42,186 nt of DNA from an uncultured Candidatus Saccharibacteria bacterium (GCA_964408305.1 CAYOYW010000005.1:1-42186); one strand, 5' to 3'; counted from the first letter of the stretch, positions 1 through 37,599 are shown. Translations and numbers: made by a program. The notes: a model not told the origin generated them from the letters alone.

Positions 1-55
1 ACTAGTAAAACATATAAAAGCATTTTATTTATTTGTATCATAACATGAAAGTACT
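1..55. repeat. Terminal direct repeat, identical to 42132..42186. This is the signature of a circular or circularly permuted assembly.
   Basis: actagtaaaacatataaaagcattttatttatttgtatcataacatgaaagtact occurs at both window ends. Confidence 0.95.
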
Positions 56-1025
56 GTCACTATTTGACTGAATAAGTTGTTGAATGATTGCACTAGAACG
101 TGCATGAATCAATGTAGAGAAATATTATGCTGCAGAAATAAAAAAAGATGCTATTCTTATTTCTCAAGACAATTACCCAGATATAATAAGGCTTGGTGAT
201 GTGAGAGATATTGACATTATTGAGGGGGGGGGGATAGATATAATTATATGATGAAGTCCTTGTCAATCGTTTTCCAATGCTTGAAAAAAAGAGTGATTTG
301 ATTGAAAAAGTTGATTATTTTACGAGTTTTTGAGAATACTTAGGGCTAATAAGCCTAGATTTTTCTTATTGGAAAATGTGAAGATGAAAAAGGAATGGCA
401 GGATATGATAACAAATATGTTGCTAGAAATATACCCAGATACAAAACTATATAATATAAATAGCTCTCTAGTATCTGCACAACTTAGAAACAGATTCTAC
501 TGGACCAATATACCATGAATTACTATGCCGGATGATAAGTGAATTGTCTTACAAGATATATTAGAAAGTTGATATACGGAAAGAAAAAAATATAGAGAAT
601 TATTAGAAAGTGATAGTAGACCACTAATTACAAAAGATAAAATGTTGTGGAGGTATATGGCTACATGATTTACAACTCTAGTATGGGATAGTGAAAAAAC
701 ATATTTGAGAGTAAAAGAAGCTACTAAAAAATGATATGTAGATATATGAGTAGATGAATGAGTAGATCTATCATATCCTACAAGTAAAACAAGAAGAGGA
801 AGAAGTATGAAAAGCAAAATACACACAATTACAAAAACAAAAAATGAATACTATCTTTTTGATGGTGAAGATATTAGATATCTTACTCAACAAGAACTAG
901 AAAAATGTCAAACATTGCCTGTATGATATACAAAATGTTTGCCTAGAAATAAGGCAGCATGATGTATAGGAGATTGACGAACGGTAGATGTTATCGCCCA
1001 CATATTTAGCTTTATTAAAAAATAA
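45..1025 (+). CDS. DNA (cytosine-5)-methyltransferase, 326 aa
   Basis: Code-25 translation gives MKVLSLFDGISCGMIALERAGI (motif I), IIIGGSPCQSFSNAGK (motif IV, catalytic Cys), PRFFLLENV (motif VI) and a C-terminal IGDGRTVDVIAHIF. Several of the motif glycines are TGA codons. TAA stop at 1023. Confidence 0.95.
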
Positions 1026-1028
1026 TAA

Positions 1029-1844
1029 ATGGAAAATCCTAGTTACTACGCAATCATACCAGCAGATGTGAGGTACTCAGATATCAAAGCAAATGCGAAG
1101 CTCCTATATGGAGAAATAACAGCCCTATCAAATAAGACAGGGATATGTTTTGCTAGTAATTCATATTTTGCTAATTTATATGGCGTATCTGACAAACAAG
1201 TATCTCTATGGATCAAAGAGCTTATGAATAAGTGATTTATAGATGTTGTTATCAAGCAAGAGGAGGGTAACAAAAGGTATATAACTATACACCAAAAAGT
1301 TACTACCTATACACCAAAAGGTGATGAGGGTATACACCAAAAGGTTTGATATAATAATACAAGTAATAATAATACCTCTAAAATCTCTACTAAAGTAGAT
1401 ACACCTGACGGTGATATAACGCCATCTGATCCTAAAATTGAAACCACCTGAAAAAAACCAGCTCACCCCCCAAAGCCCCCCTCTCAAGATTGACGTAGCG
1501 ACAGATCTCGTGAAGATATAAATACGCTAATTAAAACACTGAGGGAAACAGCGAAGGAACTTTGATTTGTATATGACAATGACAATGAACGCTTTTTTTG
1601 CAAGCATATACTAGACAGTACATTATTTTGAGACTTTGCTCAAAAGATATGAAAGTCCAGGACTGAAACAGCCGTGAGGATTATGATCCAAAGTAAGCAA
1701 TTCTACAAAACATGTATGTGACCAAAGGCGATATACAAAAACTACGCTCAGGTATACAATGACTTTGTACAGAAAAAACAACCAAAACAAGATACGAAAA
1801 ACTGAGTAACTAATTTATCCGCTTTAGCTAACCAATGAAAATAA
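1029..1844 (+). CDS. Replication-associated helix-turn-helix protein (replisome-organizer/DnaD-like N-terminus), 271 aa
   Basis: N-terminus YYAIIPADVRYSDIKANAKLLYGEITALSNKTGICFASNSYFANLYGVSDKQVSLWIKELMNKGFI is typical of the phage replication HTH family. The frame is open with TGA=Gly. TAA at 1842. Confidence 0.7.
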
Positions 1845-2224
1845 AACCTTACATCCCAGTAGTAAAAATTGAAATGAGATCTATGTGAAACGAAAAAGAG
1901 TACATAGATTGCCCTGAAATTATTACAAAGGAAATGCTTGATGCAGCACTTGCTGATTGATCTAGGTTTATCAACCTATGAGATGAAACAATCAACAAGG
2001 CAGATATCAAGAGAGTATTCATTGTGAGACCTCAGAATGATATTGAGGAGTTTATAGCACAACAGTCGTGAGATTTCAAAAAACAACTCCAAGATATATA
2101 CAACGAAAGAAAAGAAAAGAAAGTTAATACAAATTGAATTACACATTTACAGAATATACGAAAAGATAGATTTTGAGAAAAGAAAGTAGACAGTCAGAAA
2201 GCCATAAAACCTACTAAAAAATAA
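1835..2224 (+). CDS. Hypothetical protein, 129 aa
   Basis: The ATG overlaps the upstream stop region. The frame is open to TAA at 2222 once TGA is read as sense. Confidence 0.6.
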
Positions 2225-2238
2225 TCTCGTATTTCCTC

Positions 2239-2266
2239 TTGCAAATAAGAACTACGTTCGTATACT
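2239..2266 (+). promoter_or_regulatory. Sigma70-like promoter TTGCAA-N16-TATACT (copy 1 of a conserved CTCTTGCAA element)
   Basis: cctcTTGCAAataagaactacgttcgTATACT lies in a 74-nt gap upstream of the ATG at 2299. The same core is seen at 9299, 16039 and 41636. Confidence 0.6.
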
Positions 2267-2298
2267 ATAAACACTCATTTAGCACTTACAGATAAAAT

Positions 2299-2529
2299 AT
2301 GTCAGTAGTAAAACAAGAGAGTATCACGGAAGAGATGATCGATAAACACGTAGAAAAGTTTATTGATAGATTAGATATCTTATTCCATATACACTATCCA
2401 AAACGACTAGCTGATAAATTGTACTGAACTGCTAGATATGATCAGATAATAAGATGATATGCTAGAGATGAATTGGAAGCCGAAGAAGAAAACCTACAGA
2501 ATGATTTATCTCGTGAAAAATCAGAATAA
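2299..2529 (+). CDS. Hypothetical protein, 76 aa
   Basis: ATG at 2299 to TAA at 2527, with two in-frame TGA codons. Confidence 0.55.
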
Positions 2530-2648
2530 TGTATTACACTATATTACGTTTCAAGAGAGAGTTATTAGAAAAAATATACAAATGAATGATGATTGTATAC
2601 GCTGGTATAGCTATAACAATTATTATCGTAGGTATATGTATCAATTAG
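2529..2648 (+). CDS. Small hydrophobic protein, 39 aa
   Basis: TAATG stop/start overlap. Contains the TM-like stretch MMIVYAGIAITIIIVGICI. TAG at 2646. Confidence 0.35.
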
Positions 2649-2676
2649 TTTTTATCCGTAATTTATATAACCATAG

Positions 2677-3111
2677 ATGAAGTACAACGAACAGTGTTCA
2701 TGCTGCGGTAACAGAGTTACTGCATACACACATGGATTGAACTTGTGACTGATCAAAGCATTAGATGAGTTATGCAAGTTGCGAGATAAAAAGAGAAAAC
2801 CAATCAATGAGAGAAAGGAGTTGAATCTCACACTAAATGTACACTGTAACTTTCAAAAGCTCCGTTATTGGGGGCTAGTACAGCTTGTAGCTGGGGGGTG
2901 ATGGGAACCAACTCTTCTCTGATTGAGGTTCTGGCAATGATTAGAACCAGTACCAAACATTGTTGCTGCTATGCGTAATGAAGTACTACCGTACGATCAT
3001 ATAGCATGGACAACACATAAAGCACAACCTAAAAACAAGTACATACGAGAAGAAAAAGAGTTCGCATATAAAAAGCGTGAAGACTACGCTCAAGAAAGGT
3101 CTCCATTTTAA
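2677..3111 (+). CDS. Hypothetical Cys-cluster (CSCC...H) putative DNA-binding protein, 144 aa
   Basis: MKYNEQCSCCGNRVTAYTHGLNLGLIKALDEL...NFQKLRYWGLVQL. The frame was verified codon by codon. TAA at 3109. Confidence 0.6.
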
Positions 3112-3129
3112 TCCTTATTTCAAAAGACC

Positions 3130-3639
3130 ATGCAAAATATGACTCCTAATAATATACAAATCTGGTATAATTCGTATATTCAAAGAACATGACGTTCTAA
3201 TAATTCTGAGGAAGAATTATCATTGCTTATTGATTTTGCAAAAGATCATAATCTATATGACGAAGAAGCTGAGGCAAGAAATGAAATGAATGTAACAAGA
3301 CCAATTTTGAGACAAGTACCAGAAGACAAAGATTGACAATGAGATACAAGAATGTACAGATCTTGAACGTGGGAACCTCTTAGCGAATATGATATCAGAG
3401 ATCTAAAAGACTTTGATAGAGTATATTATTGGTATGAATCATGATCTTATGAATGAAGCTGATATATGATTGGTATAAAAAACGGTAAATGGTATTGAAA
3501 AGATATGTGACATTGTTCTTGCTACGGTCCTACTGAAGGTATAGAAAATGCAACACCATATAATTCATTTGAGGAATGTCTGGCAAATGCAACATTCACT
3601 CATGTACAAAAAGAATATATCAAAAAGGATTATCTTTAA
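3130..3639 (+). CDS. Hypothetical protein, 169 aa
   Basis: ATG at 3130 to TAA at 3637 with many in-frame TGA codons. No family recognised. Confidence 0.6.
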
Positions 3640-3651
3640 TTGATATCTCCT

Positions 3652-4914
3652 ATGGGGGATATTACAATGGATGGATATCTGTCTATTGTAATATCCTTTT
3701 ATATGGTAAACGCCTTACGTATGAAGATATTCTGAAAAGAAATTATTGAAGACAAAGTACTGGATCAACTCAATAATTGTATGATCCCAGGATCAATATG
3801 AGTTCTTACTGCAGATGCACATTACGGATATTCTATGCCAGTAGGTTGAGCAGTAGCGTATGAAAATCATATATCACTTTCATGAGTGGGTTTTGATATC
3901 TGATGTGGAAACAAAGCAGTCAAAACTAACCTAAAAGTATCTGATATTGATATCACACAAGTTATGCACAGAATATCGAGAGAGATATGATTCGGAGTAG
4001 GAAGACCAAACCCTGATCCAGTTGACCATCCAGTATTGGATAAAATCAAAAATGCAGTATTTGCTCCTCAAAGAGAACTTTATGAGCTTGCATCTAAACA
4101 ACTAGGTACAGTATGATCTGGAAATCATTATGTAGATATTTTCAAAGACGAAGAAGATACAATATGGATTTGAGTACATTTTTGATCAAGATGATTCGGA
4201 CACAAAACAACTATGATGTTTATAGCTATGTCACAATGACTACAGCCATTTGACAAAGCACACGAGTGACCTATGGATGGTAAACCTATCCTATTTGATA
4301 TGGACACACAAATATGAAAAGACTATTTTGAGGCAATGTCACTAGCAGGAGAGTATGCTTACGCTGGGCGTGATATTGTGTGTAATAAAGTTCTGGAGAT
4401 ACTAGGAGGCGTTTCAGTGGAAGAAATACACAATCATCACAATTTCGCACGAAAGGAAAGCCACTTTTGACGTGATTATTATGTGGTTAGGAAAGGATGT
4501 ACTCCTGCTTTCCCATGACAGAAATGATTTGTTGGAGCAAATATGGCAGATCAGTCAGTTATCCTAGAGTGAGTAGATTCAGAAGATTCAAAACAATGAC
4601 TTTATTCTACTGTGCATTGAGCTGGTAGAGTTATGGGAAGAAACGAAGCTGCATGAAAGAAGAGATGGAGAAAAGATAGAAAAATACGAGAGGTTATTCG
4701 TGAATGAAAAGTCAACTTTGATAATGTAAAAGATTATATGAAATCAAAAGGTATTGAGCTTGTAGGAGCATGAGCTGACGAAGCTCCTGAATGCTACAAA
4801 TCTCTCAAAGAAGTATTAGCATATCAATGAGATACAGTAAAAATCTTACACACGCTTACTCCAATATGAGTCGCTATGGCTGGAGAAGATGTGTACGATC
4901 CGTACAAAGACTAA
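3652..4914 (+). CDS. rtcB: RtcB-family RNA 3'-phosphate/5'-OH ligase, about 420 aa
   Basis: Motifs ADAHYGYSMPVGGAVAY, GFDIGCGN, VGSGNHYVDIF, HFGSRGFGHK, HNHHNFA, VRKGCTPA and STVHGAGR. Every line was checked in frame. TAA at 4912. The true start may be an internal ATG at 3703 or 3721. Confidence 0.93.
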
Positions 4915-4945
4915 TTTATTTATATACCTTATATAGTACAGACAA

Positions 4946-5929
4946 ATGAAAATATCTGAAGAACAGCCAACACCAGTAGAGTGAAAGGATTGGGTAATAT
5001 GATGTATGAAATCAATAAATACTAAACTATATAACGCAGGATTTAAGTTAGATAATACAAAATACGTGTTTATAGAAGAGGAAATAAGGAAGCACATGCC
5101 CCAACAGCTCAAACCTCTGGATATTGAAAAAATAGAAAAAGAAGTAGGACAAGAAGTTATTAGAAGACATCGTACTGAATGAATACCTATACCTGAAGAA
5201 GCATATATCAATAAGTATGAGATACTGTTATCTATCCTCTCCCAATACTGACAAGCACCCACTTCTACAGAGGGAGAGAAAATAGATAGACTATATAATG
5301 TAAAAGAAATAATGGAAAATTGAGGTATTATGTCTTCTGATAGTATAGACTGGGTAAATCCAATAATATCAGTTGATAAATGAGTTCCTTGATGAGATAT
5401 GACCTGTAGAACAGTATCTGTAAAAGACAAGAATTGAAAGATATTTATGATAGATAGTTTTACATATCCTACTCCCCAACCCCAAGAGTCACAGAAAGTA
5501 GAATATAAAATGTGAACATTAGAATGTTATTTACAATGACTGTGATATGAGGAGTGAGATATAAAAGAGATTATGCAGTTCGCAAATATATTCATATCAA
5601 AAAAAGTAGAGCCACAGAGCCAATCTGTCAATGTGGATGAACTGGTAAGAGACTTTATGTTGGATATTTGAGATGTATACCAAGAGGTTGACGGCCCTTC
5701 TTGTATTACATGCAGTGGAGAATATAATTATAAATATTATACAGTAGTTATCAGAGATAAGCTCAAACAACTCCTCTCTCACATAGTACCACAGAAGCAG
5801 CAATATCCCAGAACTAAGGTTTCAGAGTGGTTGTTAAAATCTTGATGGGTTTCTCATAATGAAGAAGAAAATGAGTGCCTACAAGTATTGCGAGATTTCC
5901 TCAAAGACAACTGACTCCTAAGGGAGTAA
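4946..5929 (+). CDS. Hypothetical protein, 327 aa
   Basis: Frame verified codon by codon from ATG at 4946 to TAA at 5927, with more than 20 in-frame TGA codons. No family recognised. Confidence 0.7.
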
Positions 5930-5956
5930 CACCTATTTATATACTCGTTACACACT

Positions 5957-6205
5957 ATGACTAAGCAAGAGATGTTAAAAGAAATATATAGAATAATCAA
6001 AACCCACCCTGAGTGAGATACTTGATATTCCACAATAAGAATTGGAGATATAATAGACCACCTATTTACATTTATGGACGATAGAGAAGTGTTTTTACGC
6101 ATACAAGGTATTATAGATGAAAAGTATAACACATCACATGCAACTGAAATATCAAACCGACCGATAGAAGCCATACACTACACCTACTCCATAATAACTA
6201 AGTAA
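5957..6205 (+). CDS. Hypothetical protein, 82 aa
   Basis: ATG at 5957 to TAA at 6203. Confidence 0.5.
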
Positions 6206-6232
6206 TCTATTTATCAATAATATATCTAAATC

Positions 6233-6445
6233 ATGAACAGAACAGAAAAAGTAAACGTATACGTTCAATGGCGAGTTATCAAAGAAAACTTTACATTCGG
6301 TAGATACGGTACGCCTAGAGAGGCAGAAATCAAACTTGTGGAACTAGGAGAATGAGTTATCAAAAAAGTCACTACGGTAACTACTAGGACTTTTGAGGAA
6401 TACAATCCTTTAGATCCTATCCCAGAAGAAGATGGTGGTGAATAA
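6233..6445 (+). CDS. Hypothetical protein, 70 aa
   Basis: ATG at 6233 to TAA at 6443. Confidence 0.5.
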
Positions 6446-7004
6446 TATATCAAAGTTCCCTTGGGTATTCAAATGAGGGGAACATTATTTCATACAGATC
6501 CTGGATCGCAATAGAAGTGCATCAGGCAATAACAATAGATGTATCAAAGCATACTTCATTAGTACAAAGGAAGAACTAGATGAAAAACTAGACGAAATAA
6601 TGAAAATTGCAAAAGCTACAAACAGTAGAGTATACATGCACCCAGCTAGGAGAGATAAAAAAGCTCTTGCTATTGATTTACTAAGGTATGTAGTGGCTTG
6701 TGTTACTACTCGGTCTATTGCTAGGCTGCGAAGATGTTACGAAACAGTAGCAGGTAGAAACATAGGAACAGAGAAAATGCGAATTGTAGATATAGATACA
6801 AAAGATCAGAAAATCATAGATGAAACAATCGATCATATTGCTATTATTAGACCATTCAGAAGACCATTCAAGATGCTTGAAACTGTAGATTGATATCATG
6901 CTATCTACCAATGAGGTTTTGATAGAGATGAATACTACAGAACTCGTATACATAAATGGGATGTACATACAAATAATCCAACAATCCTTTATGCCGAACA
7001 ATAA
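6432..7004 (+). CDS. Hypothetical protein with DxD / GYH motifs (possible nucleotidyltransferase or Prim-Pol-like fold), 190 aa
   Basis: GGEHYFIQILDRNRSASGNNNRCIKAYFI...SRVYMHPARRD...MRIVDIDTKD...LETVDGYHAIY...HKWDVHTNNPTILY. It sits between rtcB and cca. The function is a guess. Confidence 0.6.
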
Positions 7005-7007
7005 AAA

Positions 7008-8375
7008 ATGATACATCCATTCCAAGTAACAATAGCCCTAGAGCTATGCAAAGAGATATGATGAAAAACCTATATTGTATGAGGTGCAGTAAGAGATATT
7101 GTCATGGGTAAAGTTCCCAAGGATGTAGATCTTGCAACAAATGTGCCTATTTCAGATATATGTCATAGATTCGAAACTCATGATATTGGTAAAAACAAAG
7201 ATTTTGGTATTGTAGTCGTTATCTATAAATGATTTCACTTTGAGGTAGCACATTTCAGAAAAGATGGAAAATACTCTGATAGCAGAAGACCTGACTCAGT
7301 TCAACTTATTGATGATTTATACGAAGATCTTGCAAGGAGAGATTTTACTATGAATGCAATGGCATACGATGGTGAAAACATCATAGATCCATATAATTGA
7401 AAACAAGATATCAAAAAATGAATTATTAGATTTGTGTGAAATCCAAACGATAGAATTACTGAAGATAATCTCAGAGTTTTGAGGGCATATAGATTTGCTG
7501 CAAGATATAACTTCGATATCGCTGATGAGTTAGTTATGAAATGATATAGTCTTTTATGAGTAGCACAGGAGAGAGTCACTGATGAACTCAAGAAAGTAGC
7601 AAGCTATGGATGAAAACCACTTGCATCATTTATTCATAGATTGACAAATAACTCTATTGTGATTATACCAGAAATACAATCAAACCATTTATCGCAATCA
7701 ATGCTGCACCATCCAGAGTGATCTGTATTCAACCATATTATCCAATGTTTATGTGTTTCAGATATAGAAAACTATCTTGTTAATTTGTGTATATTATTCC
7801 ATGATGTAGGCAAACTAAACACATATAATCTAAAAGACGGTAAACATACATTTTATGGCCATGATACGGTAGGTGCAGAAATGATGGAAGCTATTGGGAA
7901 AAGAATGAAGTTCAGTACTGATGAAATAGAAACAATGAAATATGTCTGTAGAAATCACATGATCTGGCGATGGATGACAGACATGAAAAAATCTAGGATG
8001 GCAGATATAATAGTACACAAAGATTATCCTATTTTAGAGCAAGTATGTTTATGTGACGAGCTTGGTAGATTATATATGTGAGATATATTCAAACGAGCTA
8101 CTCAAAAATGAATTATTGATTTGACTAGAGTTTTGTATGATAAAAAGTCAGAATATGATAAGAAAATAAAATCATTTGTAGATGGTCGCAAGATAATGGA
8201 ACTCCGCCCAGACTTAGAATGATCTTATATTGGTATTGTAAAAAATATCGTAGTTGAGTATATCACCGATAGAGATTTCAAAGTGGACCAGGAGGAAGTT
8301 GAGAAGATAATCAAAAACTATAACAAAGAATTGAAGATCCAACCAAACCCTATCAAGCACCACAAAATACCATAG
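7008..8375 (+). CDS. cca: CCA-adding enzyme (class II tRNA nucleotidyltransferase with HD domain), 455 aa
   Basis: Motifs GGAVRDIVMGKVPKDVDLAT, RRDFTMNAMAY, FVGNPNDRITEDNLRVLRAYRFAARY and the HD motif LFHDVGK. Verified codon by codon. TAG at 8373. Confidence 0.93.
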
Positions 8376-8398
8376 TTTTATATCCTATACTCGATTGT

Positions 8399-8980
8399 AT
8401 GGTAGTAACACCCAAAACACGCAGAATAGTTTTGAGAAGACAATGAGGTATGTGTCGAGTAGAATGATGTACAAACAAACCATTGGAAATGCACCATATA
8501 TATTTCAAATCTCAGTATAAAAAAGATGATAGGGATGAGGCATGGAATCTGGCGTGATTATGTTCTAAACATCACAAAGACAATGTCGTGTGAGTACATG
8601 GATCCAACACAGAGTTGCGTGAAGCTCTTGTTGCACAAGCTGACCGTATCAAGCCACCTTATGAGAGATCTTTGGAGGTAATAAAAAAAGAAAGAAAGGA
8701 AGAGGTAGTATTGACTGATCACGAACTTAAAATGCTACAACGAGCAAAACAAAGAGACAAAGAGTACAGAAGACAGAGAGCGGTAGCATGGAAAAACAAA
8801 CAAGATCCAGAAATCGCAAAAGTTAGAAAAGAACGTAGAAAAAGAAGAGAGAAAAAATATAGGTTTGACAAAGAGATGTCTTTTAGAGCTACACATAATT
8901 GATTCAGTCCATCTCAATATAACTACAGAAAGCAAAAAGATTATTTACGTAACCAAAGGAAGTTATGAAGATATCTATAA
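8399..8980 (+). CDS. HNH endonuclease, 193 aa
   Basis: RRQGGMCRVEGCTNKPLEMHHIYF...DEAWNLAGLCSKHHKD followed by a basic tail. TAA at 8978. Confidence 0.85.
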
Positions 8981-9294
8981 AACCTCTTTCAATAAATAAG
9001 GCATTTCAGGGACGCAGATTCAAGACACAAGACTATAGGAGCTACGAACAATGACTCATGCTATTACTTCCTAATATAAAGTTACCAAAGGATATTAAGA
9101 TATCAATGACTATCGAGCGACACTTTTCGAATGAAGCTCAAGATATAGATAGTTCGGTAAAACTAACACTAGATGTCCTGCAAAAAAAATGGTGATTCAA
9201 CGACAAGCAGATATATCAACTAAATATGACTAAAAAGATTGTACCAAAATGAATGGAATGATTTACACTAGACGTTTGAGAAATTGTAGAATAA
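8965..9294 (+). CDS. rusA: RusA-family Holliday-junction resolvase, 109 aa
   Basis: KPLSINKAFQGRRFKTQDYRSYE...EAQDIDSSVKLTLDVLQKKWGFNDKQI. It overlaps the HNH gene by 16 nt. Confidence 0.8.
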
Positions 9295-9298
9295 TCTC

Positions 9299-9326
9299 TT
9301 GCAAATAAGAATGTAGTTCTTATTAT
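9299..9326 (+). promoter_or_regulatory. Promoter TTGCAA-N16-TATTAT (copy 2)
   Basis: atctcTTGCAAataagaatgtagttctTATTATacta. The first 16 nt are nearly identical to copy 1. Confidence 0.6.
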
Positions 9327-9357
9327 ACTAATATATTTATTTCATATACAAGTTTAC

Positions 9358-10167
9358 ATGACAGATACAGCTGGGGGGGAAATTGTACAAAAACCATGAT
9401 CGATTGCTATTTTTGATAGAGTCGATGTCAAGGATAAGTTCAAAGCGGTACTATGAAAGAAGTCGCCACAATTTATAGCATCTGTACTAACAGTAGTGAG
9501 TCAAAATGACTTACTCAAAAAAGCAGATCCTACTAGTATTTACTTAGCAGCACTTGTAGCAGCTACGCTAGATCTACCAATAAATCCTAACCTATGATAC
9601 GCACATATTGTGCCATATGGTGGGAAAGCACAGTTCCAAATGTGATATAGATGATTTATTCAATTAGCACATAGGACGAACCTTTTTAGAGATATTGATG
9701 CACAACCAGTGTATGAATGACAACGTGTACAGGATGATACTGTATTCGGATGATGGACATTCAAACGAAGTGCAAAAACATCTGATAAGATTATATGATA
9801 CGCTTCGTACTTCGAACTCATATCGTGATTCAAGCATACATTCTACATGAGCTTGGAAGAGATCCAAGAACATGGGAAAGAGTATAGTAAAACATACTGA
9901 CTAGAAAGTGGTAGATGGAAAAAAGATTTTGATGCAATGGCAGAAAAAACTGTATTGAAATTACTACTAAATAAGTACGCACCACTATCATTGGAAAACA
10001 CATACCAACTTGCAGAAGCTATCAAATATGATCAAGCGATTATCAATGCTGACTGAACTCCAGATTATGCGGACAATGAGCCAAGTATGGAGGCAGTAAT
10101 GGAATGATTCGAAAAGAGTCCTTTACCTTCTAACAAAGGTGGAGATGCAGAAGAATGATTATCTTAA
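9358..10167 (+). CDS. recT: RecT-family single-strand annealing recombinase, 269 aa
   Basis: LPINPNLGYAHIVPYGGKAQFQMGYRGFIQLAHRT and FDAMAEKTVLKLLL. Verified codon by codon. TAA at 10165. Confidence 0.92.
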
Positions 10168-10219
10168 TCTAACAGGTATATGAAGACAAGTAGTTGAGGC
10201 ATGGCTAGAACATAAAATT

Positions 10220-11284
10220 ATGAAAGATGAGTCGGTAGATATTGGTACTCAAATGTCATACGAGGAAAAAATTGAAAAGTATTTGTGTGACGAATGCAAG
10301 GATCGATATGTTATTCGTACTAGATGATCAATAACGGCATCAAAGATAAAATGCTTTATGAAAAACCCAGAAGAGTTCTGGATCAGATACGAGCTTGAAC
10401 TTCCAGAGTTTGAGCCGAAAGATAAACAAGCATTCAAGATGTGATCAGCGTTTGATGTTATGATATCAAGTGGTATAGATAAGTTCTCAGAATTATATTA
10501 CATTGATAAATGATATGTAAAATGAGATCTTATCAAACATATATCCTCTATGATTGATAAATACAAAGATGAGATTATGAAACATGAGAAACTAGCAAAG
10601 GAAGCTATCGAAGAAAAAATCCTAGAGCTGAAGAGCGAATCTCATATATTAAAATGGAGAGAAAAACAAAAGAATATAACTCCAGAAGATGTACTAGAAT
10701 GTCTTACGCTTGATCAGTTGAGAGATATATTTTATGAGGCATGAGATAGAATCAGATTGACTCCAGCTGAAGCTAGAGATATAATGGCTATGTATCATGA
10801 ATACGTTAGACAACCTCTATTTGATAGAGAATGAGAATATCAATGACAACATTATATTGAAGCTAAGTATGGAATCCTTCGTATTACATGAACTCTTGAT
10901 AGATTCTCATTGGAGAAAAAACTCATTAGAGATACAAAAACATCAGGTCGTATAGATAGATTCGAATATGATGTAGAGCATACATTTGACTATATAACTC
11001 AAATGGCGTTCTACTTCACACTTGCATACATACAATATGATGAATTAGAATGTGATGTATTGTTAGATATAGTTTCAACAAGTTCACCGTATGCCAGTAT
11101 CGTGTACAAGGTTAGCAAAAAGAAATTGAAGCTAAAAATGATGCAGGAAATCAAACCGGCATTTGCATCGCTTATCAGATGTTACGAAACAAATGAATGG
11201 CCAGTATGAGATAGAATGGCATCAATAACATCACCATACTATCCTATTATGCAAACAAGTATAATGTACCAGCCAGTAGAATAG
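10220..11284 (+). CDS. PD-(D/E)XK nuclease, probable exonuclease partner of RecT, 354 aa
   Basis: RITGTLDRFSLEKKLIRDTKTSG (D...D/E-x-K core). It lies immediately downstream of recT. TAG at 11282. Confidence 0.75.
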
Positions 11285-11307
11285 CTTTATTATTCACAAA
11301 CATATAC

Positions 11308-11454
11308 ATGATACAATCGTATATCTTATCAAAGATAGCAATCGCATTATGAGTAAAATCTGGGCTTATCAACTTTTTTGGTAACGACATTGTAGTAACC
11401 ATTGGTATTGCAATAGAGATTATTCATACGCTGTTTAAGTCAAGAAAAAATTAG
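11308..11454 (+). CDS. Small hydrophobic protein, 48 aa
   Basis: MIQSYILSKIAIALGVKSGLINFFGNDIVVTIGIAIEIIH. TAG at 11452. Confidence 0.35.
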
Positions 11455-11481
11455 TATTTTATCATTTATTACATATCCACC

Positions 11482-12351
11482 ATGAGACTATTTGACGAAG
11501 AAGGGATACCAACAAAAAAGTTTATTTTATCAATTATATTTGTTATATTGTGATTGATATTATTCTTTGGTAGTTGCTTTACAGTATCTCAATGATACGT
11601 TGCTGTAACAAAAACCTTCAGTAAAATGAATGACAAAGTATATCAACCTTGACTACATTTCAAGACTCCAATCATTGATTCAGTTGAAAAGTTCAACATC
11701 CAAACAAACAAAGATCAAGCTATTGCAGCAGCATCATCAAAAGATTTACAAAATGTAAGTACAGAGGTGGCAGTGAACTACAATATCGATCAAACAAGGG
11801 TAAAAGATATTTACACAAGTTTAGGAAATATGAATGCAGTTCAAGAAAAAGTAGTAACTCCAAGTATTCAAGAAGTAGTGAAAGCTGTGACATCAAAATA
11901 TAGTGCAGAAGAACTAGTTACAAAAAGATGACAAGTATCTATAGATATCACTGAATGATTGAAAGTAAAGTTATGAAATTATGGAGTGAATGTAATTGAT
12001 GTGAATATAATCAATTTTGAGATGTCAGAATGATTCAACGCATCTATTGAAGCTAAAGTTAAGGCAGAACAAGATGCTCTGGCACAAAAGAACGTATTGG
12101 AAAGAGTAAAATATGAGCAACAACAAAAGGTGATTACTGCAGATGCAGATCTACAAGCTCAAAAGCTATCAGCAGAATGAGTAGTAGTAGCTGCGAAAGC
12201 AGAAGCAGAAGCTATCAGATTGAAGTCTTCAGCAGTAGTTAATCAATGAGGTAAAGAGTATGTCCAACTCAAATGGATTGAAAAATGGAAATGAGAAATA
12301 CCTCAATATCAATTAGGATGAGCAACACCTTTAATTCAATTACCAAACTAA
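11482..12351 (+). CDS. SPFH/band-7 (prohibitin/HflC-like) membrane protein, 289 aa
   Basis: An N-terminal TM (FILSIIFVILGLILFFGSCF) is followed by GYVAVTKTFSKMNDKVYQPGLHFKTPIIDSV...VVTPSIQEVVKAVTSKYSAEELVTKRG and a coiled coil AEQDALAQKNVLERVKYEQQQK. Verified codon by codon. Confidence 0.85.
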
Positions 12352-12352
12352 T

Positions 12353-12601
12353 ATGAAAAAATGTTTTACAATAATAGAATTACTAATAGTATTTGTAATC
12401 ATTGGTATTCTTGCTGCTGCACTGATTCCTAGATTACATAGTATAAATAAGGGAACAGAGGAATATAGAGTATGAAATAATGCTATATGCTACTGATTTT
12501 ATGGTAAGATTGTTAAAAAATCAGAAAAGAAACTAGTAATTGAAACCAAAGTATGAGAGGAGAAAGTATTCTCTTCTTATGAATGTGAGAAGACAGACTA
12601 A
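12353..12601 (+). CDS. Type IV pilin-like / pseudopilin-like protein, 82 aa
   Basis: MKKCFTIIELLIVFVIIGILAAALIP is a class-III (prepilin) signal with Glu+5, but Cys replaces the usual Gly at -1. Confidence 0.75.
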
Positions 12602-12623
12602 TTTTATATTATTTTACGAAACC

Positions 12624-13286
12624 ATGTTCCAAAACATTGTATACCGTTGACTCAAAAGTACAACGAAGGAGTGAGAAGTAATTGATATTGCGATACCAGG
12701 ATATGATAATCCGATTGGTGAATCAAAGTTCCTAATCAAAGCTAGGAGAAAAGCAGTTGATGAGCAATCTATTGAAAACGGAGTGAAAATACTCTACTCA
12801 GATAGACTCAATAATCTCATTGATGATCCTGATAATATCCGCAGAGAAATGAAAAAAGAATTGGATGATCGTATCTACAAAGCATGGGAGGAATGGCAAA
12901 AACTCCCAAAAGCTATGATTTTTGAAGTATTTATTAGAAAGGTAGAAAGAAAGAGTGGACATACATATTTGTTATGTTCAGTAAGTCTACCAGTAGCTAG
13001 ATACTTCATAGAAAACAAGGAAAAAATACATAGAATGGAGTTCGACTTTGAAAAGATACCATACTTCACGTTTGATACTGATATGGCTTGATTCATTAGA
13101 GAAAGAGTAAATCTATTCAATGATGACTACACAGTAAAATCTGGACCAGAAAACAAAACACAATCTCCTCAGATAAACAAAGAGGACTGGGCTATCTATG
13201 ATAAAATCGAATTAGCTGATCCAGAGAAAACAGAGGGAAGAGTGAAACCAATTAGAAAAGTAACACCTACAAAGAAAAAGAAATAA
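12624..13286 (+). CDS. Hypothetical protein, 220 aa
   Basis: ATG at 12624 to TAA at 13284. Contains the track ORF 12783..13091 in the same frame. Confidence 0.65.
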
Positions 13287-13313
13287 TTTACATATTTTTT
13301 CACTCAACCCTCT

Positions 13314-14009
13314 ATGGATAAAAAGGTAGTCATACTTGACACAGAAACAAACTGATTCGTACATAATGAGATTATACAATTAGCGTATGTTATGGCACAT
13401 TGATATTGATATAATTCTCTCCGAGAAAGAAGTATATACTTTTCGGCAGAAAACCCCATTGATATAGAAGCCATGGCAGTACATCATATTACAGAGGATA
13501 AAATCTTTACAATGCCTAGGTTTTCATTAGACTCACTAATCCAAGCTATATGAGAAGATTCTATCATTGTAGCACACAACGCTCAATTCGATATAGGCGT
13601 TCTCCGTAAATATGGAGAAGTAAAAAATCCACACATCTGTACTATGAAACTTGCAGTATCTCTACAGAGATGGCCAAAAGTATCATTGCAATATCTAAGA
13701 TATGCTATATGATTATCTCAGGAATGAAAAGCACACGATGCTCTATGAGATGCAGTAATATGCCATAAGTTATTTGAGCATCTAAGAGACACAATCATTG
13801 CAGAGAAAGGTATGTCACTGGATGAGTTCTATGACTACGCCATAGGATTGAGTATGAAAGATATGTTCAACTTCGGTAAGCATAAATGAAAGTTTATGGA
13901 GGAAGTAAAAAAGGAGGATCCATGATATTTCAGATGGCTTATCGATGCAGAGAATAGAAAAGAAAGTCCAGACCAGACACAAATATGAGTATGGCAAAAG
14001 TATCTTTAA
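13314..14009 (+). CDS. DEDDh 3'-5' exonuclease (DnaQ/epsilon-like), 231 aa
   Basis: VVILDTETNG (Exo I), IIVAHNAQFDIGVL (Exo II), HDALGDAVI (Exo III) and a C-terminal FGKHKGKFMEEVKKEDPGYFRWL. Confidence 0.88.
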
Positions 14010-36285: not shown

Positions 36286-37599
36286 ATGGCTCCTCACTGA
36301 TATACCTCTGAAGGTTCAACAGTAATCACAAAACAAGTACAGACAGCAAACTCTGATCCAGGAAGTCTAAGTATGATTTTTTCTGATACATCAAACCTAG
36401 CAAAAATATACGCTCTAGTAGCAGGTAGTAGAATAACACTAGATAGGAACGTAAACGGTAGAATGACTATAGCAGTAGATTTGACTGGATTATCTAGTTC
36501 TGATATTACTAATTTTCAAGCAGCAGTTTCAGCTAATACAGACGTTGCAGCTAATACTGTAGCAAGACATACACACGCTAACAAAACAACTCTTGATAAG
36601 TTCTCAGAGCCATGAGGAGTATTGAACTTTAATGGTGTTCCAGTGAACTTCGAAAATCCTTTCCTAGGACAATGACAAGATGGAGCAGTTACAATATCAG
36701 TAGATACAACTCTTACTAGAGATATGTACTATGACACGCTCGTAGTAAATGCCTGAGTAAGATTGAATGCTGCATGATATCGTATTTTTGCAAAAACTAG
36801 TGTAACAGTAAATGGTATAATTAGTAACAACTGATTCAACGCATCTTGATCAACAGGATGATTGTGAGCTAGTGCTGGTACATTGAAATGATGACTTGAC
36901 GGTAAAAATGGTAGTATCTGAGCTACTGGTGCTATACCAGCGGTTGCAGGTACTGCATGATTAACAGGTACTGCATCAGCAAATAGTCTATGAGTTGCAG
37001 GTACTGCATGAGGTGCTGGATGAGATACTGGAAATTATGGTCCAAATAGTATTGCATCAGGTGGTGCATCTTGAGCTGGATGAGCAAGAACAGTTGCCAT
37101 AAATCTACCAAAATCTATCTATCAATTCATGGCATTCGTAGATGCCAATTATAGTGTTAACAACGTAACAGCATACTACTCTTCTTCAGCATGAGGTGGA
37201 TGAGGTGGATGAGGTGCAGCATATTGATCTCCAGCTACTGGTTGAACTGGTGGATGAGGTGGATGATGATGAGGTATCGTATTCATCTATACTCCTAGCT
37301 TGACTATATGAGCTACATGAGTGATCGAAGCGAATTGATGAGCTGGTTGAAACGGAACGGCTTGAACTGGCGGTACTGGATGACAGACTGCAGGTTGAGG
37401 TGGATGAGGTTCTGGATGAGCAGGATGAGTTGTTATCTTGATATATAAAGCTATTAGTAATGCTTGAGTTGTTAGAGCGTTATGATGAGCTGCATGAGCA
37501 GGATGATCTCCATTGCAATTCGGTGGTACATGAGCTACTGCATGAGCAGGTTGAGTATCATGAAATACATGAAATACTTACACTTACACATATATCTAA
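36286..37599 (+). CDS. Glycine-rich tail fibre/spike-like protein, 437 aa
   Basis: Every line was checked. There are about 48 in-frame TGA codons by hand count. Sequence includes SSSAGGGGGGGGAAYGSPATGGTGGGGGGGGGIVFIYTP and VIEANGGAGGNGTAGTGGTGG. Confidence 0.8.

Follow-up and report, generated by a model that had tools for sequence, protein, structure and literature searches.

A large unannotated phage protein family linked to RNA-repair enzymes and tRNA arrays, seen from the RtcB and CCA-adding enzyme genes of a code-25 phage

Phage T4 answers the PrrC anticodon nuclease of its host with Pnkp and Rnl1, which heal and seal the tRNA-Lys that PrrC has cut. RtcB, for its part, seals breaks with 2′,3′-cyclic-phosphate and 5′-OH ends, e.g., those produced by anticodon nucleases, and CCA-adding enzymes rebuild damaged tRNA 3′ ends. 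When RtcB, ATP-dependent RNA ligases, polynucleotide kinases/phosphoesterases and CCA-adding enzymes are carried by phages, they are interpreted as systems that repair tRNA attacked by the host (Iyer et al. 2021, PMC7824862). This work concerns a contig of 42,186 nucleotides recorded for an uncultured Candidatus Saccharibacteria bacterium (GCA_964408305.1 CAYOYW010000005.1:1-42186; hereafter the window, i.e., the whole stretch that was analysed), in which positions 3652-8375 of the plus strand hold six open reading frames (ORFs): an RtcB gene (rtcB, ORF1), four uncharacterised ORFs (ORF2 to ORF5) and the gene of a CCA-adding type enzyme with an HD domain (cca, ORF6). RtcB and CCA-adding enzymes carried by phages are ordinary and already established, and the cassette per se adds to known phage RNA repair one more example, from a phage that uses genetic code 25 and infects candidate phyla radiation (CPR) bacteria. 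What goes beyond the known is ORF5, as it belongs to a very large unannotated phage family (ORF5fam below) whose linkage to RNA-repair enzymes and tRNA arrays is statistically supported.

The locus resembles the RNA-repair sets of jumbo and other phages described in PMC7824862 in that a phage-borne RtcB is accompanied by a CCA enzyme of the Pol-beta superfamily, a combination read there as a counter to host tRNA cleavage. It differs from them in that the phage is small (42 kb), uses code 25 and carries no tRNA genes, Rnl ligase, polynucleotide kinase (PNK) or RlaP, in that its cca is coupled to the uncharacterised ORF5fam gene, and in that the 2-kb spacing of the RtcB and CCA genes is not conserved. 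With T4 Pnkp/Rnl1 it would share the logic of a phage restoring tRNA broken by a host nuclease, and ORF5fam sits in T4-type kinase-phosphatase-Rnl clusters in other phages. Unlike in T4, however, the RtcB of the window would seal directly, with no kinase or phosphatase step needed, and the absence of kinase, HAD phosphatase and Rnl domains from the six ORFs and their flanks indicates that the locus is not a member of the T4-type heal-and-seal group. The bacterial Rtc operon (RtcR-RtcA-RtcB) and the archaeal and eukaryal RtcB-archease pairs have the catalytic RtcB core and residues in common with the window, which lacks RtcA, RtcR and archease and where the genetic partners are ORF5fam and the CCA enzyme instead. 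The latter has, like the multifunctional CCA enzyme of E. coli, a PolyA_pol head followed by an HD/HDIG domain with its metal ligands present, whereas its head and neck are closest to the Bacillus type and the phosphatase/cyclic-phosphodiesterase activity of its HD domain is assumed.

ORF5 (6432-7004, plus strand) overlaps the end of ORF4 by 14 nt and ends 3 nt ahead of cca, and such a layout implies co-translation, i.e., that ORF5 is probably coupled translationally to cca. Its product matches only two families in PHROGs, both of unknown function (phrog_14949, at 2.8e-8, and phrog_8839), and gives no match in Pfam, NCBIfam or PADLOC. A direct search returned one homolog, P0001, some 53-54% identical and encoded at 10001-10624 of L001, a TGA-recoded Logan contig which is the nearest relative found and of which 19.6 kb were fetched. 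Distant homologs are present in Cellulophaga phage phi17:2, Dulem virus 40 and a human-gut phage (tblastn), and more distant members are 24-35% identical. A first viral scan with a two-sequence ORF5 alignment gave no match; the five-sequence profile, in turn, brings the family to 1,389 protein clusters or more, some 200-215 amino acids long, all unnamed and none with a Pfam domain, and neither Pfam nor NCBIfam has a model for it. Among 185,579 bacterial and archaeal species (one genome each) ORF5fam was found at 24 loci, mostly on contigs of metagenome-assembled genomes (MAGs), and the family is essentially phage-borne. In 59 diverse members N5, R26, R66, G108, D120, G154, H156, F163 and N181 are invariant, and D122 nearly so, a pattern that suggests an enzyme.

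The AlphaFold model built from a 58-sequence alignment of the family is confident (predicted local distance difference test, pLDDT, 88.4; predicted template modelling score, pTM, 0.82), and the fold is apparently novel, as far as the model goes. In the BFVD library of viral structures the only matches are uncharacterised phage proteins, e.g., one of Campylobacter phage CP21. The motifs D-x-D-T, G-x11-DxD and G-x-H had brought up a HAD phosphatase, a Pol-beta nucleotidyltransferase and an archaeo-eukaryotic primase (AEP) as candidates for ORF5, and these were rejected, since the order of secondary structure elements misfits and neither Foldseek nor the profiles give such relatives. Tpt1/KptA and archease were likewise set aside, having no Pfam or fold support.

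The genes around ORF5fam are what suggests its link to RNA ends. When 80 viral ORF5fam loci were clustered for neighbour families and the recurrent ones checked against Pfam, these turned out to include an AAA_33 P-loop kinase (6e-12), HAD_SAK_2 (5e-18) and RNA_ligase PF09414 (2e-8), besides calcineurin-like phosphoesterases, PolyA_pol, ATP-dependent DNA ligase and enzymes of nucleotide metabolism. HAD_SAK_2 is by definition the ‘HAD domain in Swiss Army Knife RNA repair proteins’. In 10 loci the gene of the kinase touches or overlaps that of ORF5fam, in 3 the gene of HAD_SAK_2 does, PolyA_pol lies at 235 nt or less in 3, and the order ORF5fam-kinase-Rnl-phosphoesterase-phosphoesterase recurs. 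For counting, 88 standard-code viral loci were reduced to 43 groups at 80% identity and to 16 groups at 50%, with AAA_33 kinase, HAD_SAK_2, Metallophos, RNA_ligase and PolyA_pol as the RNA-end enzymes. A gene for one of them is found within 300 nt of ORF5fam in 16 of the 43 groups and within 8 kb in 21, and at 50% identity within 300 nt in 9 of the 16. Measured against the other genes of the same loci, ORF5fam is directly flanked by an RNA-end enzyme gene in 12/43 cases (28%), as opposed to 50/981 (5%), with an odds ratio of 7.2 and a Fisher p of 3e-6; with the groups at 50% identity, these counts become 5/16 and 26/392 (p = 0.004).

Pairing with nucleotide-adding enzymes is seen in several settings. 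In L001 the ORF5 homolog lies one gene downstream of a cca homolog, whose product is 62% identical to that of the window, and the other neighbours differ from those of the window; for the 108-aa gene between the two (9675-10001), Pfam and PADLOC gave no match, and the window has no equivalent of it. In phi17:2 (locus L004, 5947-8455) the ORF5fam gene gp033 is directly followed by gp032, a PolyA_pol ‘tRNA nucleotidyltransferase’ reduced to the head (245 aa), and then by gp031. The pairing occurs also in the marine contigs L009 and L010 and in L168, where the genes of Rnl1 (PF09511) and an AAA_33 kinase come first, followed after three genes by ORF5fam, after one more by PolyA_pol and after another one by RNase_T. 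As a separate observation, gp031 of phi17:2 is annotated with a poly(ADP-ribose) polymerase (PARP) catalytic domain (PF00644) and NAMPT genes are recurrent near ORF5fam, which hints at a link of the module with NAD+/ADP-ribose chemistry.

RtcB itself appears next to the family in an independent set of genome contigs, where rtcB directly follows ORF5fam, overlapping it by 4 nt, in Prevotella sp. MGM2 (L159, 7863-9778) and in Palleniella muris NM73_A23 (L148, 8576-9617), and lies 2.2 kb from it in an Omnitrophota MAG (L155). The rtcB of L148 is frameshifted into two overlapping ORFs, either as a pseudogene or through a sequencing error, and a radical-SAM-like gene comes next. tRNA genes are a further kind of neighbour: they lie within 8 kb of ORF5fam in 16 of 52 loci, at least six of them in 9 loci, a count made without background control. 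They flank the family directly in L077 (3176-15510) and L064 (5155-13433), and in L077, L064, L070, L024 and L084 ORF5fam is placed inside large phage arrays that count as many as 28 tRNAs. Three of the tRNA-array loci have a phage tmRNA gene as well, and one tRNA of L064 has the anticodon CTA, i.e., that of an amber suppressor, which ARAGORN names ‘Pyl’.

Back in the window, both enzymes after which the locus was singled out are well founded. The rtcB gene (3652-4914, plus strand) encodes a predicted ligase of 3′-phosphate or 2′,3′-cyclic-phosphate to 5′-OH RNA ends and matches Pfam RtcB (PF01139) at 1.7e-59, with 202.6 bits against a cut-off of 27, residues 51-408 covering positions 16-424 of the 426 in the profile, and phrog_1075 at 5.5e-67; the NCBIfam RtcB models match too, with scores under their equivalog cut-offs. 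Loss of the metal- or GTP-binding histidines had been given in the preliminary description as something that would refute its proposal, and in the alignment to 4dwr/1uc2 these histidines, as well as all other metal and GMP ligands, are kept: D55, H57, D82, C85, N158, H159, H176, H263 and H322, counted from the start at 3652, stand for D65, H67, D95, C98, N202, H203, H234, H329 and H404 of the Pyrococcus horikoshii enzyme. The first 23 codons have a poor codon score and fall outside the homology, and the true start may be at 3721.

The cca gene (7008-8375, plus strand) encodes a class II tRNA nucleotidyltransferase of the CCA-adding type with a C-terminal HD/HDIG domain, as had been proposed. 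Its head matches Pfam PolyA_pol at 1e-31, and its C-terminal domain matches Pfam HD at 1.1e-5 (26.1 against a cut-off of 22) and the HDIG model TIGR00277 (36.8 against 27.6); for both RtcB and cca, PHROGs and NCBIfam concur with Pfam on the family. Head and neck align to the CCA-adding enzymes of Bacillus and Geobacillus at 1e-39 to 6e-40, and the motifs are intact, with motif A as GGAVRD at 25-30 and DVD at 39-41, motif B as RRD at 110-112, motif D as EDNLR at 152-156, and HHPEG at 234-238. The metal ligands of the HD domain (H...HD...H...D) are found in H234/H235, H265-D266 (HD 265-266), H285-D286 (GHD 284-286) and D350. Loss of the flexible loop between motifs A and B marks CC-adding enzymes, and this loop is kept here, residues 83-98 (FRKDGKYSDSRRPDSV) aligning ungapped to FKTDGDYEDYRRPESV of the Geobacillus enzyme 1miv. 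The E. coli-type ‘multifunctional CCA addition/repair’ model NF008137 aligns in colinear order with residues 20-339; the best NCBIfam match is NF009814 ‘CCA tRNA nucleotidyltransferase’ (194 bits against a cut-off of 290), the PcnB models score lower, and the product falls under every NCBIfam equivalog cut-off, for which reason CCA-adding rather than A-adding specificity is likely and not proven.

All of this depends on the genetic code. Translated with table 11, the region 3652-8375 gives short fragments only, and this code was rejected because it breaks up the ORFs. With TGA as a sense codon, the coverage by ORFs of at least 100 codons on both strands of the whole window rises from 16 kb to 76 kb, and the six ORFs, including the four intervening ones of the preliminary description, open exactly at the boundaries given here, each with an ATG start and a TAA or TAG stop, and with 24, 16, 2, 1, 3 and 14 in-frame TGA codons in the order ORF1 to ORF6. 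These codons fall on invariant glycines of the RtcB motifs GSGNH, VHxGSRGxGH and HGAGR and of the GGAVRD motif of the CCA enzyme, and TGA is the most frequent glycine codon, making up 3.9% of codons; the code is therefore 25, and code 4, which reads TGA as tryptophan, was rejected. By codon-usage log-odds the frame adopted is the best one in 6/6 ORFs, being weakest in ORF3 and strongest in ORF4. The contig has an exact terminal overlap of 55 bp, which makes it a complete circular assembly of ~42.13 kb, and carries genes for the large subunit of a terminase and for a major head protein: it is a complete tailed phage of ~42.1 kb with genetic code 25. Scans of positions 1-42186 found no tRNA, tmRNA or other RNA recognisable by Rfam.

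The six genes are packed tightly, with gaps of 31, 27 and 27 nt between the first four and then the overlap and short gap flanking ORF5, and no terminator-like site occurs on the plus strand in the intergenic gaps of the run. A promoter scan was uninformative, giving fewer sites than in shuffled sequence. The earlier proposal of one operon holds as regards tightly packed co-directional genes; as a separate unit it is not demonstrable, for the six genes lie within a co-directional early/replication array of ~14 kb (45-14,000) that has no distinct boundaries and runs, in order, through a C5 methylase, an HTH_36 protein, the cassette, HNH, a RusA-like protein, RecT, PD-(D/E)XK and Band_7.

The sandwiched ORFs had been put forward as accessory factors of repair, and this fits ORF5 alone, on account of its linkage to cca, RNA-end enzymes, RtcB and tRNA arrays; ORF2, ORF3 and ORF4 are orphans. 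Profile searches, as recommended in that description, led for ORF5 to the two PHROGs of unknown function and for ORF2 to ORF4 to no known family, and the structure search, made with the model of the ORF5 family, led to no PDB fold. ORF2 (4946-5929, plus strand; 327 aa), ORF3 (5957-6205, plus strand; 82 aa, its frame the best one by a weak lead) and ORF4 (6233-6445, plus strand; 70 aa, with an acidic C-terminus) match no family in Pfam, PHROGs, NCBIfam or PADLOC, and tblastn against the phage collection of 50,697 records gave no match for them even at E <= 1.

ORF2 is confined to TGA-recoded phages. A search among 5.8 billion proteins returned its own record alone, three partial relatives and one low-complexity false match came out when 1.84 billion representatives were searched exhaustively with HMMER, and a scan of viral contigs gave no match. 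The three relatives are rich in tryptophan where ORF2 has TGA-encoded glycine, and are therefore proteins of other recoded phages mistranslated with code 4; only N- and C-terminal motifs are common to them and ORF2, the middle being variable. Neither rtcB nor cca lies beside the homolog in any of the three, all of which are on short contigs, and one of these has a methylase fragment upstream of it. Public databases translate proteins of the present contig and its relatives in the same way, i.e., with TGA as tryptophan, the database record of ORF2 (P0121) having W at 16/16 TGA sites, and the AF2 model of ORF2 derived from such a mistranslated database sequence was unusable (pLDDT 38.6). Mistranslation of this kind hides the homology of code-25 phage proteins and hampers the prediction of their structure. 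As far as their sequences tell, ORF2 to ORF4 look like lineage-specific accessory genes with no tie to RNA repair.

Taken together, we consider it rather probable that the region is an RNA repair module (for tRNA most likely) within the early array of the phage, with RtcB, ORF5 and the CCA/HD enzyme as its credible parts. The catalytic residues of RtcB and of the CCA enzyme are kept, which makes a capacity for RNA/tRNA repair credible. RtcB would directly seal RNA breaks with 2′,3′-cyclic-phosphate or 3′-phosphate and 5′-OH ends, via His322-GMP and with Mn2+, and the CCA/HD enzyme would re-add the missing 3′-terminal C, C and A to tRNA. The HD domain of the E. coli CCA enzyme is reported to clear 3′- or 2′,3′-cyclic phosphate, and by analogy the one encoded here probably removes such phosphates where they block extension. 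ORF5fam would act on tRNA ends that are broken or immature, be it as an enzyme that processes them by means of its conserved D-x-D / H / R / N constellation, be it as a cofactor that presents the tRNA, and could partner whichever healing, sealing or nucleotide-adding enzymes each phage happens to have; ORF2 to ORF4 would be lineage-specific orphans inserted between the genes of the module. By analogy with the phage systems described at the outset, it is reasonable to infer that the module counters host nucleases that target tRNA. For the family as a whole we advance, tentatively and with the odds somewhat against it, that ORF5fam is a component of tRNA repair or maturation with a new fold, interchangeable in its partners (RtcB/Rnl, PNK-type healers, CCA/PolyA_pol). 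Such a general role would explain both its spread over more than 1,000 phage lineages and its embedding in tRNA arrays.

The two enzymes are not unusual in phages: tblastn against the 50,697 phage records found homologs of RtcB in 518 of them and of the CCA enzyme in 422, the best phage match being the same for both enzymes, i.e., the jumbo Tunturiibacter phage Tunturi_5, where the two genes are ~9 kb apart on opposite strands. A number of results weigh against the interpretation as a repair module. The neighbourhood of rtcB and cca, which the preliminary description proposed to check in related phages, does not persist: no RtcB was found in the 19.6 kb of L001, and within 10 kb of 45 full-length CCA/HD homologs at IMG/VR loci (30-62% identity in the best segment, mostly 34-46%) both RtcB and ORF5fam scored 0/45. 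Close linkage of RtcB and CCA genes, at ~2 kb here, is thus not a conserved arrangement. In Pfam and tRNA scans of the window, genes for PNK, archease, RtcA and tRNA were all absent. As to ORF5fam, a Foldseek comparison of its model with the PDB reached E = 0.11 at best and a TM-score of at most 0.27, its profile had no match among PDB sequences at E <= 10, and longer members contain no Pfam domains and no informative domain fusion, and no biochemical function is assignable to the family from fold, fusion or PDB sequence. About 60-70% of its loci have no recognisable RNA-repair neighbour, many lie among genes for DNA polymerase, helicase, DNA ligase, ThyX, dUTPase and phosphoadenosine phosphosulfate (PAPS) reductase, and the hidden Markov models behind the neighbourhood counts were home-built from Pfam-checked seeds. 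Metallophosphoesterases and PNK-like kinases, moreover, can act on DNA ends too.

Several of these points could be read as meaning that there is no functional cassette at all, rtcB and cca being independent auxiliary genes and all four ORFs between them, ORF5 included, unrelated accessories. The RtcB-CCA proximity that is absent in L001 and at the 45 CCA/HD loci, the distant and opposed genes of Tunturi_5, the orphan state of ORF2 to ORF4, and the single array of 45-14,000 without distinct boundaries are all in keeping with such an explanation. Chance assortment, however, would hardly keep ORF5 and cca together in L001 at 54-62% protein identity while the other neighbours differ, nor enrich ORF5fam ~7-fold beside RNA-end enzymes and place it against rtcB in unrelated elements, and the 14-nt overlap and 3-nt gap around ORF5 imply co-translation. 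We regard this explanation as unlikely.

A housekeeping role would do without any attack on tRNA: the phage would supply CCA addition and RNA ligation to a code-25 host with a reduced genome (Absconditabacteria/Gracilibacteria), and so boost a translation rich in TGA-encoded glycine. Code 25 and the high share of TGA (3.9% of codons) agree with this, and so does the lack of tRNA genes of its own, which leaves the phage wholly dependent on host tRNAs; the genomes of CPR hosts are streamlined (PMC10746230), and ORF5fam is often embedded in the tRNA arrays of phages, a setting that calls for the phage tRNAs to be matured. The cited work on phages of Absconditabacteria and Gracilibacteria makes no mention of rtcB or cca genes. 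Nonetheless, no role of RtcB in the maturation of bacterial tRNA is known, and it joins specifically the kind of ends that nucleases leave (established biochemistry; PMC7824862), and the neighbours of ORF5fam are mainly end-healing kinases, phosphatases and ligases, i.e., enzymes of break repair, and housekeeping is in our view improbable as the purpose of the locus. It is decidedly improbable that ORF5fam is a protein of DNA or nucleotide metabolism (e.g., in DNA end processing or base modification) brought near RNA repair by the clustering of early genes, since, for all that ATP-dependent DNA ligase (22 loci), DNA polymerase A, helicases, dUTPase and thymidylate synthases are frequent neighbours, with deoxynucleoside monophosphate (dNMP) kinase, NAMPT, uracil-DNA glycosylase (UDG) and PAPS reductase also near, and that the kinase and phosphoesterase families concerned can act on DNA ends, the genes directly adjacent are preferentially RNA-specific (PF09414/PF09511 RNA ligases, RtcB, HAD_SAK_2, PolyA_pol/CCA), the family is interleaved with tRNA genes, and the same-locus control already covers general clustering.

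Some observations on the surroundings may be of use apart from the repair module. A 169-aa ORF (3130-3639), 12 nt upstream of rtcB, has weak PHROG matches and no function found: it matches phrog_8792 (function unknown) at 2.5e-5 and, across 46 residues, an ‘integrase’ family at 3.7e-5, and it could form one transcription unit with rtcB. The recombination module (RusA-like, RecT, PD-(D/E)XK) closes with the gene of an SPFH/Band_7 membrane protein (11482-12351; Pfam 3.5e-28), which is unusual cargo for a phage. In the tail region, the 437-aa ORF at 36286-37599 has 48 TGA codons, 23% glycine and long poly-Gly/Ala/Thr runs, and its product is probably a glycine-rich fibre or receptor-binding protein. 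Outside the window, L005 (MT835492.1, 4468-7151) has a DNA polymerase A gene upstream of its ORF5fam homolog and then a LAGLIDADG-like ORF of 232 aa, and this polymerase may have been broken up by an intron or homing-endonuclease element.

In conclusion, it is ORF5fam, rather than the cassette, that would extend what is known of RNA repair in phages. Should the family turn out to represent a new activity or cofactor of RNA repair, it would supply a missing part of the conflict between phages and their hosts over tRNA, and, if so, it might also yield a new tool enzyme for RNA ends.

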